Made by a program: the position numbers and the translations under genes. This document shows, in pieces, positions 44,000 to 60,440 of a DNA stretch of 64,000 bases. The notes under the pieces are model-generated. The model had not been told where the DNA came from. It searched no databases and saw only the letters and a list, made by a program, of their open reading frames with translations. The DNA comes from Vicinamibacterales bacterium (GTDB lineage Bacteria > Acidobacteriota > Vicinamibacteria > Vicinamibacterales > UBA2999), in the NCBI GenBank assembly GCA_035538015.1, contig DATLLC010000042.1, forward strand, positions 6,450-70,449, given 5' to 3'. Position 1 is the stretch's first letter, and each line of letters starts with the position of its first letter.

Positions 44000-45364
44000 A
44001 TGTCCGAGAACTATCTCGCCACCCGCTACACCTGTTCCTGGCCTCACTCCATCGCGGTCATGCTCTGCGACGGCCGCATCGTCTGTGGTTGCGCGGACCC
44101 GTACGCGCAGCGGGTGCTCGGCGACGTGCGGACCACGTCGATCGCCGACGTCTGGCAGGGACCGACCGCGCGGCAGCTCCGCGTCGACCTGAATGCCGGC
44201 GGATCGTCCTTCTGCGGCGATTGTCCACTGAAGCTGCCGCTCGGGCCCGGGGACGCGATTCCCCAGCGCGACGTGAACGTCGGTCCGCTGCCCAGCCGGC
44301 TTTACATCGAGTGCACCGCCGCCTGCAACATCTCGTGCTTCCAAGCGTGCTGCGCGCCGGAGACCGGCATCACGAGGACGCGCCAGGCGGGGATGCTCGA
44401 CTGGGATCTGTTCACGCGGGCCGTGGACGAGGCCGGTGGCTCGCTCGTCCGCATCGACTTCTTCAATTACGGCGAGGCGTTCCTGCACAAGCGGGCGGTC
44501 GAGATGTGCGAGTACATCAAGTCGAGGTTCCCGCACATCTACCTGTACACCAGCACGAACGGACTGGCGCTCACCGAGGAGAAGGCGCGGCGGCTCGTCC
44601 ATTCCGGCATCGACGAGGTCACCTTCTCGATCGACGGCGCGTCACAGGACGCCTACGTGAAGTACCGCCAGCGAGGGAACTTCGACAAGGCGCTGGCGAA
44701 CCTGCGGGCCATGGCCGACGAGAAGCGCAAGAGCGGGCGCGACGTGCCGCACCTGAACTGGCGCTACATCCTGTTCAACTGGAACGATGCGGACGAGGAG
44801 ATGAACAAGGCGCGCGAGATCGCTGCCGAGGTCGGCGTCGATCGGCTCTGCTGGGAGATTACCGATCACCCGGAAGACTCTTACTCACGCCGCTTCGCCC
44901 CGGGCACGCCGGACTACGAGCGGATCCGTCACGAAATCTGGGACATGAGCGGGCTCGGCAACGCGATTCCCGGAACCACCCCACGGGCGCAGATCGACGT
45001 CCGCGCGCTGATTCCAGGCTTCCCGCTTCGCGCCAGAGCGACGCAGCCGGTGAGGGTCAAGACCCGCGTGAAGAACCTCTCGGGCCGCCCGTTCCGGGCC
45101 CAGGCGAGCTACGGCCGACGCCTGGTCCGCCTCGGGGCGCAGTTGATGGGCGAGGACGGCACGATAATCGACCGGGATTACGCCCGGGCCTGGCTGCCTG
45201 GGGATATTGCTCCTGGCGGCGTGGCGGAGGTCGTGATGGAAGTGCTCGCCCCCGAGAAACCGGGGCGCTACGCGCTGAAGTTCGACCTTGTCAGCGAAGG
45301 CATCGACTGGTTCGAGAAATGCGGTTCTCAGACCACCACCAAGACACTCGTGGTCCGCGCGTAG
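44000..45364 (+). CDS. Radical SAM-fold enzyme with N-terminal Cys-rich (SPASM/twitch-like) domain and C-terminal Ig-like domain
   Basis: Core motifs: CTAACNISCFQACC cluster, NYGEAFL (GGE-like), TSTNGLAL and FSIDGASQDAYVKYRQRGNFDKA. N-terminus: CDGRIVCGC...LGDV..SIADVW...CGDCPLK. The C-terminus (RYALKFDLVSEGIDWFE) resembles NBR1/CARDB-like Ig domains. A TTG at 43979 is an alternative start. Confidence 0.8.
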   Translation: MSENYLATRYTCSWPHSIAVMLCDGRIVCGCADPYAQRVLGDVRTTSIADVWQGPTARQLRVDLNAGGSSFCGDCPLKLPLGPGDAIPQRDVNVGPLPSRLYIECTAACNISCFQACCAPETGITRTRQAGMLDWDLFTRAVDEAGGSLVRIDFFNYGEAFLHKRAVEMCEYIKSRFPHIYLYTSTNGLALTEEKARRLVHSGIDEVTFSIDGASQDAYVKYRQRGNFDKALANLRAMADEKRKSGRDVPHLNWRYILFNWNDADEEMNKAREIAAEVGVDRLCWEITDHPEDSYSRRFAPGTPDYERIRHEIWDMSGLGNAIPGTTPRAQIDVRALIPGFPLRARATQPVRVKTRVKNLSGRPFRAQASYGRRLVRLGAQLMGEDGTIIDRDYARAWLPGDIAPGGVAEVVMEVLAPEKPGRYALKFDLVSEGIDWFEKCGSQTTTKTLVVRA

Positions 45365-45380
45365 GGTGGCAGGGGGGACT

Positions 45381-45450
45381 ATTGATGATTGATGATTGGC
45401 GATTGATGATTGATTGGCGATTGGGCGATTGCGCCATTGCATTCAATTGC
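45381..45450. repeat. Degenerate tandem heptamer array, unit NNGATTG (about 9 units), one orientation only
   Basis: Read directly: attg atgattg atgattg gcgattg atgattg attg gcgattg ggcgattg cgccattg... It begins 17 nt after the radical-SAM stop codon. Confidence 0.8.
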
Positions 45451-45464
45451 GCGGACGCGGGCGC

Positions 45465-45748
45465 TCAGGGTTCGCGCGACGCCGTATAGGCGGCGTTCGC
45501 GACCATTGTCGTCGACCGTCAGTCGCTCCACCGCCGCCTGCATGAGCGCCGCCCAGGCGCCCTTCCTGTTACCTGCCTGGAAGTCGAACAGCTGCCGCAC
45601 CGTGTAGCTCGGTGAGCGCCGGCCAGCGGCCGCACGGGCCCGAGGCCTTTCAGGTCCGGCTCCGCGGCCGGCGGCGGCGGGTCGGTCTGCGCCCCAAGTG
45701 CACTCCCGCCGCCGCGATCAACACGCTCGCAACCACACGAATGCTCAT
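45465..45748 (-). pseudogene. Possible frameshifted remnant of a small secreted class-I cytochrome c-like gene (no CXXCH left)
   Basis: AGGAG-N7-ATG at 45748 opens MSIRVVASVLIAAAGVHLG (signal). The coding sense then continues in two other frames (AQTDPPPPAAEPDLKGLGPVRPLAGAH / YTVRQLFDFQAGNRKGAWAALMQAAVERLTVDD / MVANAAYTASREP*). Three 1-nt shifts are needed, two of them at homopolymer runs. Confidence 0.4.
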
Positions 45749-45822: not shown

Positions 45823-48297
45823 ATGAGTGCCCTGAGCGCCGCGCTCCGCCAGCTGCGTCAACACCCCGGCTTCGCCCTGATCACCGTGCTCGTGCTGGGC
45901 CTTGGCACGGGATCGGCCACCGCCGTCTTCACCGTGGTCGATGCCGTCGTCCTGCGACCCCTCCCCTACAAGGAGCCAGATCGGCTGGTGACGATCTGGG
46001 ACACCAACGCAGCGCAGGCGCTCGGCCACGATCGGATCTCGCCGGTCAACTTCATGGATCAGCGGGCGCTTCCGGTGTTCGAGGATGCCGCCGCCTGGTG
46101 GCGCCCGGGTGTGAACCTGACCGATCCAGGCCGGGACCCGATGCGCGTGACGACGATCGAGGCGAGCGGGAACCTCTTCGACGTGCTCGGCATTCGCCCG
46201 CAGCTCGGCGACGGCTTCCCGGCGGGAGGGCCGCTGTTCGCCCGCGGCGAGCCGCTGGCCGTCATCAGCGACCGTCTCTGGCGGGAGCGGTTCGGCGGCG
46301 ACCGGGGCATCCTGGGCCGGCCGATTCTGCTGAACGGCTCTGCCTACCTGGTCGCGGGCGTCATGCCGGCGGGCTTTCATTATCCAGACGACGTGGATGT
46401 GTGGCAGCGACTGCAGTGGGACATGACGCAGCACAGCCGGCAGGCCCACTTCATGGAAGCGGTCGCGAGGCTCAAGGCTGGCGTGACCACCGAGCAGGCC
46501 CAGAGCGCCGTGGATGCGCTGTGGATACGGCTCGAACAGGATTTTGGCCAGACCCGCAACAGCCCCGGCAAGGGCTGGGGCTCGCGGCTGGTGCCCCTCC
46601 TGGACGAACAGCTCGGCTACTATCGCCCGGCCTTGATGGTGCTGTTCGGCGCGGTGGGCCTGCTCCTCACCATCGCCGTCCTCAACGTCGCCTCTCTGCT
46701 CCTCACCCGCTCGCTCGCGCGCGAGCGCGAAATCGCCGTGCGTGTGGCCCTTGGGGCCTCGCCTCGACAGTTGATCCGGCAGTTGATGGCCGAGAGCCTC
46801 GTCCTCTCGGTCGCGGGCGCCATCGTCGGGACGGCCGCGGCCGTCGCCGCCCTGCCCCTCATCCTCGCCGTCATGCCGGTCGAGATCCCACGACTCCAGG
46901 AGGCGAGCGTGAATGCGCGTGCGCTGGCGCTCGGCCTGCTGGTGGTCGGTGTGACGACCGTCGTCTTCGGGCTGGTCCCGGCGCTGCTGCTGCTCAAGCG
47001 GCAGGTCGCCGTTGATCTCAAGTCTGGTGAGCGCGGCAGCTCACGCGGTGCGCGCCGGTTGTACTCCGTGCTGGTGACGGCCGAGGTCGCGCTCGCGTGC
47101 GCGCTCCTGGTGAGCTCGGCTCTGCTGGTGCGCACCGTTCAGCAGATGGTGCGAACACCGGTCGGCGTGAACGCGGACGATGTGCTGATGACGACCGTGC
47201 AGCTCATGCTCCCCGCGGCGCCACGCGGCACGTCAATCCGCGACCAGTGGCTGCCGGTCGCCGAGACCCACGCGCAGATCGTGGAGGCCATTCGCCGTCA
47301 GCCCGGGGTCATCGCTGCGGGCGCGAGCAATTTCCTACCGCTCGAGATCGGCTGGCGGCAGCCGTTCGTGCTCGACGGACAGCCCTGGCCTACTCCCATC
47401 GATGATGCGCCGCAGGTGCAGATGCAGAGCGTCAGCGACGGCTACCTGGAGACAATGGGCGCCGCACTGGTAGAAGGGCGCCTGTTCACGCCCTTCGACA
47501 ACGCCGGCACCGCCGGGGTGATCGTCGTCAACGAGACCTTCGCCAGACAGCACCTGCCAGAGGGGCGTGCCGTGGGGACCGTCGTGCGTCTGCACACGAG
47601 CAGCATCGGGCCGCTCGGCGTCAACCTGAAGGCGTCGGCCACTCACGAGCCGGCCGGGCAGGCCTTCGAGGTGATTGGCGTGGTGCGGGATGTTCGCAAC
47701 GTCCCGCTCGGCCAACGCACCGAGCCGGCGTTCTTCACGACCACGCGCCAGTACCCGTTTTCAGAGGTGTTCCTGGCGGTCCGGGCCACGGACTCGGCGA
47801 CGGCGCTCTCGGCGATTCGGGACGGCCTCCGGTCGGTGGCCCCACAGGTACCGATGGCGGCAGCTCGGACTTGGGGAGACCGCTTTGCGTCGCGGACTGC
47901 CGAACCTCGGTTGCTGATGGTGCTGCTGTTGTTCTTCGGCGCGGTTGCGGCGGCGCTCGCCGCCCTTGGCGTCTACGGGTTGTTCTCGTGGGCCGTGGCC
48001 CAACGAACGCGGGAACTGGCCATCCGCCTTACGCTGGGCGCCCGGCCCCTGCGCGTCGGCGGGGCGGTGCTGGCGCAAAGCGTGCTGCTCATCGGGGCGG
48101 GCCTGGCCGTCGGGTTGGTCGTCGTACGCCTGTCGGAGGCCGCCCTCGCACGGGTGTTGTACGAGGTGTCTCCGTCCGACGCCGGGTCGATCGTGATGGC
48201 CGCGGGCGTGCTGATTGCTGCCGCGATCGGCGCATGCCTGCCGCCGGCCGTGAAGGCCATGCACGTCAACCCGGTGGACGGGTTACGGGCTGACTAG
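45823..48297 (+). CDS. ADOP family duplicated FtsX/MacB-type permease (two MacB_PCD + FtsX modules, no ATPase partner nearby)
   Basis: 824 aa. The N-terminus LRQLRQHPGFALITVLVLGLGTGSATAVFTVVDAVVLRPLPYKEPDRLV is the hallmark of the acidobacterial duplicated orphan permease family. There are two four-helix FtsX modules. Confidence 0.92.
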   Translation: MSALSAALRQLRQHPGFALITVLVLGLGTGSATAVFTVVDAVVLRPLPYKEPDRLVTIWDTNAAQALGHDRISPVNFMDQRALPVFEDAAAWWRPGVNLTDPGRDPMRVTTIEASGNLFDVLGIRPQLGDGFPAGGPLFARGEPLAVISDRLWRERFGGDRGILGRPILLNGSAYLVAGVMPAGFHYPDDVDVWQRLQWDMTQHSRQAHFMEAVARLKAGVTTEQAQSAVDALWIRLEQDFGQTRNSPGKGWGSRLVPLLDEQLGYYRPALMVLFGAVGLLLTIAVLNVASLLLTRSLAREREIAVRVALGASPRQLIRQLMAESLVLSVAGAIVGTAAAVAALPLILAVMPVEIPRLQEASVNARALALGLLVVGVTTVVFGLVPALLLLKRQVAVDLKSGERGSSRGARRLYSVLVTAEVALACALLVSSALLVRTVQQMVRTPVGVNADDVLMTTVQLMLPAAPRGTSIRDQWLPVAETHAQIVEAIRRQPGVIAAGASNFLPLEIGWRQPFVLDGQPWPTPIDDAPQVQMQSVSDGYLETMGAALVEGRLFTPFDNAGTAGVIVVNETFARQHLPEGRAVGTVVRLHTSSIGPLGVNLKASATHEPAGQAFEVIGVVRDVRNVPLGQRTEPAFFTTTRQYPFSEVFLAVRATDSATALSAIRDGLRSVAPQVPMAAARTWGDRFASRTAEPRLLMVLLLFFGAVAAALAALGVYGLFSWAVAQRTRELAIRLTLGARPLRVGGAVLAQSVLLIGAGLAVGLVVVRLSEAALARVLYEVSPSDAGSIVMAAGVLIAAAIGACLPPAVKAMHVNPVDGLRAD

Positions 48298-48308
48298 GTG
48301 AATGGCCT

Positions 48309-48487
48309 CCATTGGTGATTGATGATTGGTGATTGACGATTCATTGAATGATTGGGCGATTGAACCATCGGGCCATTCGTGATTGGCGCCGCCACCCGCC
48401 CAATCGCTCAATCGAATGAAGCATTGCGCCGATCGTCAATCAGCCGATGAATCGCCAGATCATCAATCGCCAATCGTCAATGGTCAA
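48309..48487. repeat. Imperfect palindrome (about 180 bp) built from NNGATTG heptamers (left arm) and CAATCNN heptamers (right arm)
   Basis: Read directly. The arms align in heptad register (GATTG cores pair, variable dinucleotides mostly do not). The element fills the whole spacer between the convergent ADOP and asparaginase genes. Confidence 0.8.
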
Positions 48488-48497
48488 GCGCGCGGGC

Positions 48498-49562
48498 TCA
48501 GTAGGTGTCGAAGGCGCGCTGGAGACCCTGGCGGTCTTTCGTCCTGGTGAGGGCCAGCATCAGGAGCACGCGCGCCTTGTTCGGCGACAGGTCGCGCGCG
48601 AGAACGGCACCCAGGCCCTCGGTGGGATCGCCGACGATCCGACCACCCGGCACGTGCGAGGCGACAACGGCCGCGACGCTCGCATCGACCGCACGCTGAA
48701 CGGCGGCACGTCCTCCCGGACTGAGACGGCCACCGGCAAAGGCGGCAAACACCACACCAGCCGGCTTCGACGTGAGCACGCCGTCCATCAAGGCCGGATT
48801 GAAACCCGGATAGTCGTAGAGCATCGCCACCTCTGGCAGCCTGTCGGCCCTGGAAACGTCGAACTCGCTTGCCGTGGTGTGTGCCCGAAGGGGTGCGCGA
48901 TAGAAGGTCACTCCGTCCGGATCCACGAACCCGAGAAACCCTAATTCGGGCGAGCGGAAGGTCTCCACCCGGCGGTTGTCGGTCTTCCACACGTCACGGG
49001 CGGCGGCGATGTGCTCGTTCAGCGCGACGAGCACCCCCTTGCCGACCGCTTCGTCCGACACCGCCACCCGTACGGCATTCAGCAAGTTAGCCGGGCCATC
49101 GGCCGAGATCTCGTTGGCCGATCGCATCGATCCGGTGAGAACCACGGGGCGACGATCTCGGACGGTGAGGTTCAGGAAGTAGGCCGTGTCCTCGAGCGTG
49201 TCGGTGCCGTGGGTGATGACGATGCCGCGCAAGCCGGGATCCGCGGCGAAGCGCTGGTTGACGCGGCCGGCCAGGGTCAGCCAGTGCGCGGGGGTGATCT
49301 GCGACGACCCGACCCGGCTCACCTCTTCGACGCTCACGGCCGCATGCTCGTTCAACTGCGGCACGGCCGCGACGAGCGACGACCCGTCCTGCATCGAGGC
49401 GCCAAGCCGGCTGGCAATGGTGCCGCCGGTGGTGAGGATGATGATGCGCGGGCGAGCCGGCGCCTGAGCGCGTGCCGACACAGTGAGTCCGACGAGCCCG
49501 GTGCTGAGCATCACCACGATGCCGATCAGCACAAGCCCGTCCCGTCCAGGACGCGCGATCAT
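48498..49562 (-). CDS. ansB: Secreted type II L-asparaginase
   Basis: N-terminal signal/anchor, then IIILTTGGTIAS (catalytic Thr motif) and HGTDTLEDTAYFL. The ATG overlaps the upstream gene's TGA (ATGA). Confidence 0.93.
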   Translation of the reverse strand: MIARPGRDGLVLIGIVVMLSTGLVGLTVSARAQAPARPRIIILTTGGTIASRLGASMQDGSSLVAAVPQLNEHAAVSVEEVSRVGSSQITPAHWLTLAGRVNQRFAADPGLRGIVITHGTDTLEDTAYFLNLTVRDRRPVVLTGSMRSANEISADGPANLLNAVRVAVSDEAVGKGVLVALNEHIAAARDVWKTDNRRVETFRSPELGFLGFVDPDGVTFYRAPLRAHTTASEFDVSRADRLPEVAMLYDYPGFNPALMDGVLTSKPAGVVFAAFAGGRLSPGGRAAVQRAVDASVAAVVASHVPGGRIVGDPTEGLGAVLARDLSPNKARVLLMLALTRTKDRQGLQRAFDTY

Positions 49563-55048: not shown

Positions 55049-55127
55049 AGCCAGACTCTGGGTGACCGACCGAAGAGGCGCAATCGGCCAACCAGCGACC
55101 CGTCGCAGCTAGCGGCCCGTAACCGCT

Positions 55128-55322
55128 GAATCGGTATCTGATGATCTCTTGATCGGGTGACGTTGTGATGGATCTGGCGATCGGATGATCTGGTGATCGG
55201 ACGATCATCTGACGGATCTATCTGGGCCGGATAGATCGAGAGATAGATCAGGTCGATCACCAGATCACCAGAGCGATCACCAGATCACCACCTCGAGACA
55301 TCAACAGATATCGTTATCTGGA
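55128..55322. repeat. Imperfect palindrome (about 195 bp) built from NNGATC(G/T) heptamers, centre hairpin GATCTATC-N7-GATAGATC
   Basis: Read directly. Left arm: ...gatctggcgatcggatgatctggtgatcggacgatc... Right arm: ...gatcaccagatcaccagagcgatcaccagatcacca... It lies between the convergent PaiB-like and CoA-ligase genes. Confidence 0.75.
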
Positions 55323-55330
55323 CCACTAGA

Positions 55331-60387: not shown

Positions 60388-60390
60388 CCG

Positions 60391-60440
60391 TCCGCACCCG
60401 CCCGCACCTGCCGGCACCTGTCCGCACCTGTCCGCACCTA
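60391..60440. repeat. Five tandem degenerate decamers (TCCGCACCYG-type) abutting or overlapping the stop codon of the CBM9/DUF5916 gene
   Basis: Read directly: tccgcacccg cccgcacctg ccggcacctg tccgcacctg tccgcaccta. Confidence 0.8.

Follow-up and report, generated by a model that had tools for sequence, protein, structure and literature searches.

The STRR repeats, whose units are CCCCAGT, TTGGTCA and CAACAGT, are tandem heptanucleotides of heterocystous cyanobacteria and were reportedly described by Mazel et al. in 1990. A further comparison for the sequence analysed here is with the heptameric G-rich repeats, with the unit GGGAATC in Xanthomonas and GGGGATT or GGGGACT in Nostoc. Each genome has about 185 such loci (89-93% intergenic), at a mean distance of 28 nt from the ORF on their 5' side and 160 nt from the downstream ORF (Rehm et al. 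2015, PMC4692102). Each Xanthomonas genome holds 70-75 inverted pairs of these repeats in convergent orientation; the repeats are rarer between divergent ORFs, they differ between Xcc and Xac, and most of them are transcribed, with transcripts starting or stopping at the G4-capable repeats more than at control repeats (PMC4692102). The published survey found neither a function nor a link to mobile elements (PMC4692102). For most genomes in the survey of Mrazek et al. 2007, as that work is cited in PMC4692102 and PMC4679880, heptanucleotides are the commonest kind of long SSR, and polymerase slippage was proposed as the cause. In marine Beggiatoaceae, TAACTGA heptamers form oriented direct repeats, mostly of 2-6 copies in forward orientation directly upstream of start codons, with one inverted pair; cold-shock, S1 and CsrA proteins were proposed as their binders, without evidence (MacGregor 2015, PMC4679880).

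The window, by which we mean the whole 64,000-nt stretch of DNA that was analysed, carries at positions 48309-48487 about 12 GATTGNN-type units on the + strand and then about 12 on the − strand. We propose that two degenerate heptanucleotide tandem arrays with the unit GATTGNN make up this feature as an inverted ("convergent") pair, and that they belong to the class of intergenic heptameric long SSRs, together with GGGAATC, GGGGATT/GGGGACT and the STRRs. Each array has the 5' end of its G/T-rich strand set against the end of its own ORF. From the sequence, the feature is probably a member of that class in another phylum, with a spacer that is not of the G4 type. Read in another phase, GGGGATT is GATTGGG, so the Nostoc repeat is itself a GATTGNN unit. 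The arrays resemble the Xanthomonas and Nostoc heptamers in being intergenic 7-nt tandem units with an ORF by the 5' side of the G strand, in that convergent inverted pairs are common and few lie between divergent genes, and in varying among close relatives; they differ in that the present arms have about 12 units and are strongly degenerate towards the centre, in a spacer that is mostly AT, GT, GC or AC, and in their acidobacterial host, the closest homologues with a name being from Vicinamibacterales. Four marks of the class are found here: head-to-tail 7-nt units, two or more in number (Tandem Repeats Finder and GATTGNNGATTG counts); a non-coding position with the G strand starting no more than about 50 nt from its 5' ORF neighbour (12, about 10 and 15 nt); convergent inverted pairs (the element itself and 61/61 of the GATTG pairs listed); and variation in length and sequence beside conserved flanks (L472, L473 and distant relatives). 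Four or more consecutive GGG-bearing units, the mark of the G-quadruplex subset, were not found in the element.

STRRs, which are dispersed and have a unit characteristic of each genome, are intergenic tandem heptamers like the present arrays, but the unit sequences and the phylum differ, and the TAACTGA arrays are likewise intergenic heptamers with a strong orientation to ORF ends and a scattered phylogeny, whereas the present arrays come after stop codons and are paired. The REP unit is an imperfect palindrome of 20-40 nt that carries a GTAG or CGTC tag and is associated with a RAYT transposase. REP, BIME and REPIN sequences share with the element an intergenic position, often at gene 3' ends, inverted doublets, foldability and a role as rearrangement hot spots; here, in contrast, a direct 7-mer serves as the unit and only the element as a whole is palindromic, and we found no GTAG or CGTC tag at the element ends and no palindromic unit. 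By analogy with these sequences, the element might stabilise mRNA 3' ends or terminate transcription weakly. Intrinsic terminators and the "hairpin clusters", as the latter are outlined in PMC8355165, also place stable RNA structure right after stop codons, but the element has neither a short GC-rich stem nor a U-tract, and its structure is not conserved among strains; a consensus scan of 48298-48497 found no stem followed by a T-run on either strand. Rfam returned no match at gathering scores in the whole window, and at the locus, searched with E up to 10, only noise with E>0.4. The element is not a REP, a REPIN, a MITE, an intrinsic terminator or a member of an Rfam family. A MITE was rejected on the grounds that there is no target-site duplication and that there are no terminal inverted repeats beyond the arrays; a direct repeat of 15 nt that flanks the element (family D3) is part of the conserved coding end of each gene and is therefore coincidental. 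CRISPR, retron and attC were set aside (the anatomy has no spacers, and no reverse transcriptase or integrase was seen nearby), as was a small ORF (every frame of the G strand contains stops). A literature search for the unit strings returned only primers.

Anatomy of the element and its kin in the window

The features to which we refer below are the following.

45380-45465, + strand: third array, of the same family, single-armed, 3 kb from the palindrome
45823..48297, + strand: ADOP family duplicated permease gene, whose stop codon abuts the left arm
48309-48394, + strand: left arm, G/T-rich, about 11-12 GATTGNN-type units (from the sequence and Tandem Repeats Finder)
48395-48487, − strand: right arm, of the same array family as the left arm (from the sequence and an inverted-repeat search)
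48427-48440 and 48468-48481, no strand assigned: direct repeats of 14 nt, 41 nt apart (CGCCGATCGTCAAT and CGCCAATCGTCAAT)
48498..49562, − strand: type II L-asparaginase gene, whose stop codon abuts the right arm

The first-pass annotation had described 48309-48487 as a palindrome of about 180 bp in heptad register, AT-richer than its surroundings and lying between an ADOP permease gene and an asparaginase gene. The sequence is as described, its GC content is 51% against about 69% nearby (0.51 vs about 0.69-0.73 in the flanks), and a protein-family scan, which covered only five window ORFs, those adjoining the arrays, agrees with both gene names. The element fills the 200-nt gap between the two stop codons. 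Its left arm starts with CCATTG, 12 nt past the permease stop codon (48295-48297), and the left half reads CCATTGGT, GATTGAT, GATTGGT, GATTGAC, GATTC, ATTGAAT, GATTGGGC, GATTGAACC, ATCGGGCC, ATTCGTG, ATTGGCGCC. On the − strand, the right arm begins about 10-15 nt past the asparaginase stop codon (48498-48500) and reads CCATTGAC, GATTGGC, GATTGAT, GATCTGGC, GATTCAT, with further units after these. The 7-nt register that had been ascribed to the arms holds exactly for about four outer units in each arm but fails for the inner ones, which are 5-9 nt long, GC-richer and, in the left arm, degenerate; Tandem Repeats Finder called period 7 at 48311-48341 and 48450-48487, with 4.4 and 5.3 copies. The inverted-repeat arms comprise 46 nt with 72% complementarity and 25 nt with 80%. 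The pattern GATTGNNGATTG has 7 matches in the 64-kb window against 0.12 expected (0/100 shuffles reach 7), and every match lies either at the palindrome site or at 45387-45423. Because the spacer is mostly AT, GT, GC or AC and few units carry a GGG run, a G-quadruplex is not expected; the GGG runs of the element are isolated (GATTGGGC, and GGGCC at 48371-48375). A consensus scan gave one weak promoter-like site on the − strand in the right arm (TTGACC-17-GATGAT, 9/12).

More copies of an arm had been anticipated, and one was found in the third, same-family array at 45380-45465, which reaches from 15 nt past the stop codon (45362-45364) of a radical SAM gene to the stop codon (45465-45467, − strand) of a cytochrome c gene remnant. 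In global alignment the left arm scores 39 against the third array and 26 against the right arm, and the left arm and the third array have odd-length units in a common order and an identical GATTGGGCGATTG block. When 398 GATTG arrays from other genomes served as controls, 0/398 reached the score of the left arm with the third array, while the scores of the other two pairings among the three arrays were matched by 5/398 and 4/398; for the distal halves of the three arrays, controls at or above the score numbered 2/398, 27/398 and 3/398, which is marginal. A CCATTG start is common to all three arrays (the third array has CTATTG in the window and CCATTG in L472), as is the odd-length unit order 7,7,7,7,4/5,7,8,9. 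Across about 74 kb of this genome (the window plus L478), the three arrays lie at two loci, and no further GATTG array was found in 9.7 kb of added sequence left of the window.

Next to the third array, 45468-45653 (− strand) is a frameshifted remnant of the C-terminal 60 or so residues of a dihaem cytochrome c, a gene that is intact in the relative L166 (598..1566). The rest of this gene is replaced in the window by the ADOP permease gene; the region from the radical SAM gene to the asparaginase gene has therefore been rearranged, and its borders are the two GATTG array loci.

Transcripts leaving either gene would, in this strain, fold into a long imperfect hairpin. The predicted fold of the + strand has −79.3 kcal/mol (z −3.30 vs dinucleotide shuffles) and that of the − strand −80.3 kcal/mol (z −3.26), so both strands outfold their shuffles, at z about −3.3, which is one of the tests that the first-pass annotation had set for its palindrome. 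The regular ladder that it had drawn, with 5-bp helices separated by 2x2 loops, is not what is predicted: in the + strand fold, which has 66 pairs (29 GC, 29 AU and 8 GU), the cores are fused by G-U pairs, giving 12-13-bp helices. When the third array is combined with the right arm, the chimera folds at −94.4/−87.1 kcal/mol on the two strands, compared with −77.0/−76.9 kcal/mol for the native arm pair in the same comparison, and a perfect palindrome made from the left arm at −174 kcal/mol. Since the chimera outfolds the native pair, the arms are not co-adapted and, judging by the arm sequences, exact arm pairing is not kept by selection. The palindrome is the outcome of two arrays of the same family in opposite orientation; with one array for each of the convergent genes, the pair reads as a 180-bp palindrome. 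From the earlier interpretation, the inverted repeat, the folding above chance and the existence of more copies are thus retained, and the hairpin geometry as the thing that matters is not supported, the chimera with the third array folding better than the native arms.

Turnover among strains and relatives

Three metagenome contigs with a 100% identical asparaginase (L121, L465 and L466) have kept the element, and L121 matches about 7 kb of the window with 99.65% identity. No change in unit number was seen among the four near-identical contigs, and L121, L465 and L466 differ from the window only at the outer left edge of the element. Of the 21 differences between L121 and the window in the 7 kb, 5 cluster in 26 nt at 48290-48315, one of them a 3-nt indel; this junction between array and ORF looks like a local hot spot.

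In L472, which has 97.7% nucleotide identity to the window across 19.3 kb, 41 nt of the asparaginase-side arm are missing, exactly one period between CGCCGATCGTCAAT and CGCCAATCGTCAAT; it is the biggest indel across the 19 kb, and the loss of one period is what would be expected of slippage or unequal recombination. For the gap that remains in L472, the predicted folding is on a par with that of shuffles (z −0.87 and −0.91). In L473, whose asparaginase gene is 96-98% identical at the nucleotide level, only CCATTGACGATTGGCGA, the first two units, is common with the window past the stop codon, and beyond it the loop is another one and the arm consists of AAATCGT/CAATCGT units; this contig stops short of the next gene. 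At L473 1560-1695, total divergence from the window starts inside heptad unit two or three, which suggests a junction of recombination or rearrangement at the array.

At larger distances the arrays are absent. We found no GATTG array in the asparaginase-ADOP gaps of L123, L124/L168 and L148 (73-79% protein identity), where the gap is 30-70 nt compared with 200 nt in the window, and none in the orthologous radical SAM gap of L166, which is 53 nt compared with 100 nt in the window. The asparaginase-ADOP gap of L124/L168 (4967-5030; 78% identity) holds instead a GAGAACCY repeat of period 8. The comparison of strains and relatives thus indicates that the arrays are young and lineage-specific, and that their flanks are far more stable. 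Between direct repeats inside the arrays, blocks of units are added or dropped, and array turnover is much faster than that of the flanking genes. Conservation in relatives, on which the first-pass annotation had also staked its palindrome, is contradicted by the arm cut by 41 nt in L472, by the two units left in L473 and by relatives at 73-79% identity that have no array. The segment 48309-48487 is fast-evolving simple-repeat filler between unrelated metabolic genes, and its annotation as a conserved regulatory RNA or protein scaffold is unwarranted.

GATTGNN arrays across genomes

Four consecutive GATTGNN units occur at no fewer than 120 loci (at least 120) in a species-representative genome collection, in many phyla, where about 1 would be expected by chance according to our own arithmetic (2 x 596e9 / 4^20). 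The hosts among the matches listed include Acidobacteriota, Planctomycetota, Chloroflexota, Cyanobacteria and Bacteroidota, as well as Xanthomonadales, Desulfobacterota, Verrucomicrobiota, Gemmatimonadota and others. With phyla taken from the record titles, the family spans at least 10 phyla, well past the Xanthomonas and cyanobacterial cases in the literature. The scan gives no sign that the GATTG core is special, since composition-matched control cores are abundant too: in viral contigs, heptad arrays of four units number at least 120 loci for GATTG, at least 120 for GTTAG and 44 for GTATG. Individual genomes have their own favoured unit, such as GATTGCA in Oscillochloris and GATTGCG in a Pirellulaceae MAG.

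The layout of array, loop and inverted array was seen at many GATTGNN loci, and it has a constant polarity. Among the matches listed, the G/T-rich arm comes 5' in 38 GATTG pairs vs 1 in genomes and in 23 vs 0 in viral contigs, and the G-rich arm comes 5' in 14/14 pairs of the control core GTTAG. The sole exception (L039) is a third array that adjoins a normal pair, so that among the listed pairs polarity is invariant, at 61/61 for GATTG and 14/14 for GTTAG. The GATTG pairs sit a few nucleotides from both neighbouring ORFs and lie between convergent genes in 15 cases, co-directional genes in 24 and divergent genes in 3 (n=42, among the matches listed). Single arrays are nearer to the ORF at the 5' side of the G strand in 97 cases vs 46 and, between co-directional genes, the C/A-rich strand is the sense strand in 73 vs 36, all neighbour counts being based on crude gene calls (longest ORF plus a GC-frame test). 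That each arm is a sense-strand array after a stop codon was rejected as a rule for the class because it is too narrow; class-wide, what lies at the 5' end of the G strand is equally often the start codon of an ORF on the other strand. The 5' half of the G strand is more regular than the 3' half in 85 vs 48 arrays (Wilcoxon p = 0.0014), and the three arrays of the window share this class-wide pattern of a regular 5' half and a degenerate 3' half.

Two loci have an unusual organization. In Oscillochloris sp. ZM17-4 (L031 2946-3243), a higher-order tandem repeat of about 69 nt runs through four periods, each of which consists of a heptad array (GATTGCA/GATTGTT) and a 34-nt unique block, and the closing arm is TGCAATC x4. 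In a Phycisphaerae MAG (JAUWNI010000005.1; L039 6700-6990), GATTG/CAATC arrays, a complete inverted pair among them, lie in frame within an uninterrupted Ser/Thr kinase ORF, between HRDVKSSNILL and DFGLA, adding about 30 residues to a loop. Palindromes of this kind are therefore tolerated in transcribed and translated sequence.

The polarity rules of the class are not accounted for by slippage. Together with phylum spread and ORF-proximal regularity (85 vs 48, p = 0.0014), none of which slippage alone explains, they are concrete, testable constraints on the function of the arrays and on the mechanism by which they spread.

Weighing the explanations

Taken as a whole, the account of the element as a convergent pair of heptameric SSR arrays is one in which we have good, if incomplete, confidence. 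The arrays would have arisen and changed by slipped-strand mispairing or unequal recombination, and the hairpin may be a generic U-tract-less barrier or 3'-end protector between convergent genes; alternatively, an AT-richer spacer might merely hinder convergent read-through or shield 3' ends. A terminator or stabiliser role is something we purely infer. That the hairpin itself is selected, as a bidirectional, U-tract-independent terminator or as a 3'-end stabiliser of both convergent mRNAs in the manner proposed for REP/BIME or "hairpin clusters", we regard as possible but unlikely. Folding above shuffles on both strands and the filling of the convergent gap speak for it, as do the placing of GATTG pairs (15/42 convergent, 3/42 divergent), the sole arm substitution in L121 (48315 G>A), which converts a G-U into an A-U pair, and the starting and stopping of Xanthomonas transcripts at G4-capable repeats (PMC4692102). 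Yet neither arm is followed by a T-run or co-adapted to the other, L472 has lost 41 nt from one arm only and with them its fold (z −0.9), the native −77 kcal/mol is under half of the −174 kcal/mol of a perfect palindrome, and a comparable palindrome lies within the intact L039 ORF. A putative protein-recognition scaffold, in which regularly spaced GATTG cores would recruit several molecules of a regulator or of an RNA-binding protein, such as one that has a cold-shock or S1 domain, seems to us very improbable: the 5-nt core is constant beside a variable 2-nt spacer and recurs in many phyla, and cold-shock, S1 and CsrA-type binders were proposed for TAACTGA (PMC4679880), but unit number and sequence differ even between strains that are 97-99% identical, relatives with the same genes have no array, the control cores also form arrays of four units (GTTAG at least 120 loci, GTATG 44) and the neighbouring genes are unrelated in function.

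Two further explanations address origin and orientation. Because a shared CCATTG start and odd-unit order are not predicted by slippage in situ, copying of a whole element of about 86 nt fits them better, and we consider as a doubtful alternative that the arrays are a non-autonomous dispersed or mobile polar unit (CCATTG, regular heptads, a degenerate GC-rich tail) copied to ORF ends, singly or as REPIN-like inverted doublets, with slippage altering the copies only later. The CCATTG start, unit order and identical GATTGGGCGATTG block common to the three copies point this way, and so do their lineage-specific presence in gaps that are longer by about the length of the element (100 vs 53 nt and 200 vs 30-70 nt), the favoured unit of each genome (GATTGCA in Oscillochloris, GATTGCG in the Pirellulaceae MAG), the in-frame arrays of the L039 kinase gene, and the duplication of array and 34-nt unique block together in L031. 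It is at odds with the lack of a target-site duplication and of terminal inverted repeats other than the arrays, with the five array-side ORFs scanned, among which no transposase was identified, with a distal-half likeness barely above controls (2/398, 27/398 and 3/398), with the shared-tail pattern GATTGGGCGATTGNNCCAT, whose 5 matches in viral contigs are all chance matches in coding sequence, and with the published survey, which made no mobile-element link (PMC4692102). Translational or Rho punctuation, in which selection would see the orientation of an array and so give the universal arm polarity, strikes us as improbable. The G/T-rich strand, supplying TGA in all frames, would suit sites after a stop codon, and the C/A-rich strand, without start and stop triplets and rut-like, sites before a start codon. 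The G strand of the three arrays does carry, in 90 nt or so, 7-9 stop triplets and 9-13 start triplets, where the C strand carries 1-2 and 3-4 and the window overall 1.5 and 3.3; an in-frame TGA lies within 6-7 codons of each of the three stop codons, the C/A-rich strand is sense in 73 vs 36 single arrays between co-directional genes, and 5/5 short-period arrays of the window follow a stop codon immediately, with the G-rich strand as sense. Such selection is an orientation filter, though, which provides neither origin nor function, the gene calls are crude (longest ORF plus GC-frame test), and GTTAG arrays have the same polarity with stop triplets on both strands. The rival explanations are compatible with one another. 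From the defined 5' end, the regularity on the ORF side with distal decay and the G/T-rich arm coming first, it could also be argued that short-period arrays in general form a widespread, polar class anchored at ORF ends and copied by some mechanism or kept as gene-end punctuation, giving stops in every frame behind ORFs and rut-like leaders free of starts ahead of them. We hold this to be quite unlikely; if true, the arrays would be more than passive products of slippage.

Other short-period arrays lie in the same genome. A second heptamer family, with about 7 units of TTGGGGC / CTTGGGG at 2419-2478, fills the gap from the stop codon of a + strand ORF (2428-2430) to that of a − strand ORF (2479-2481), and its G-rich strand is the sense strand of the + strand gene. 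A second simple-repeat palindrome at 55130-55320, in the convergent gap 55049-55330, combines G/T-rich units of 8 nt, TGATCTGG / TGATCGGA, in its left part with GATCACCA units in its right part and GGATCTATCTGGGCCGGATAGATC in the centre; in comparison with L472 it too is an indel hot spot (23, 23, 9 and 6 nt). At 60390-60439 there is a 10-nt array, GTCCGCACCT x5, which on the − strand, as AGGTGCGGAC, starts at the stop codon of the − strand gene (60438-60440) and has regular units by the ORF and degenerate ones farther off. A related GCACCT/GTCCGCACC array is found at L478 13300-13455, in the same genome and at least 60 kb from the array at 60390-60439, directly upstream of the start codon of a sensor kinase.
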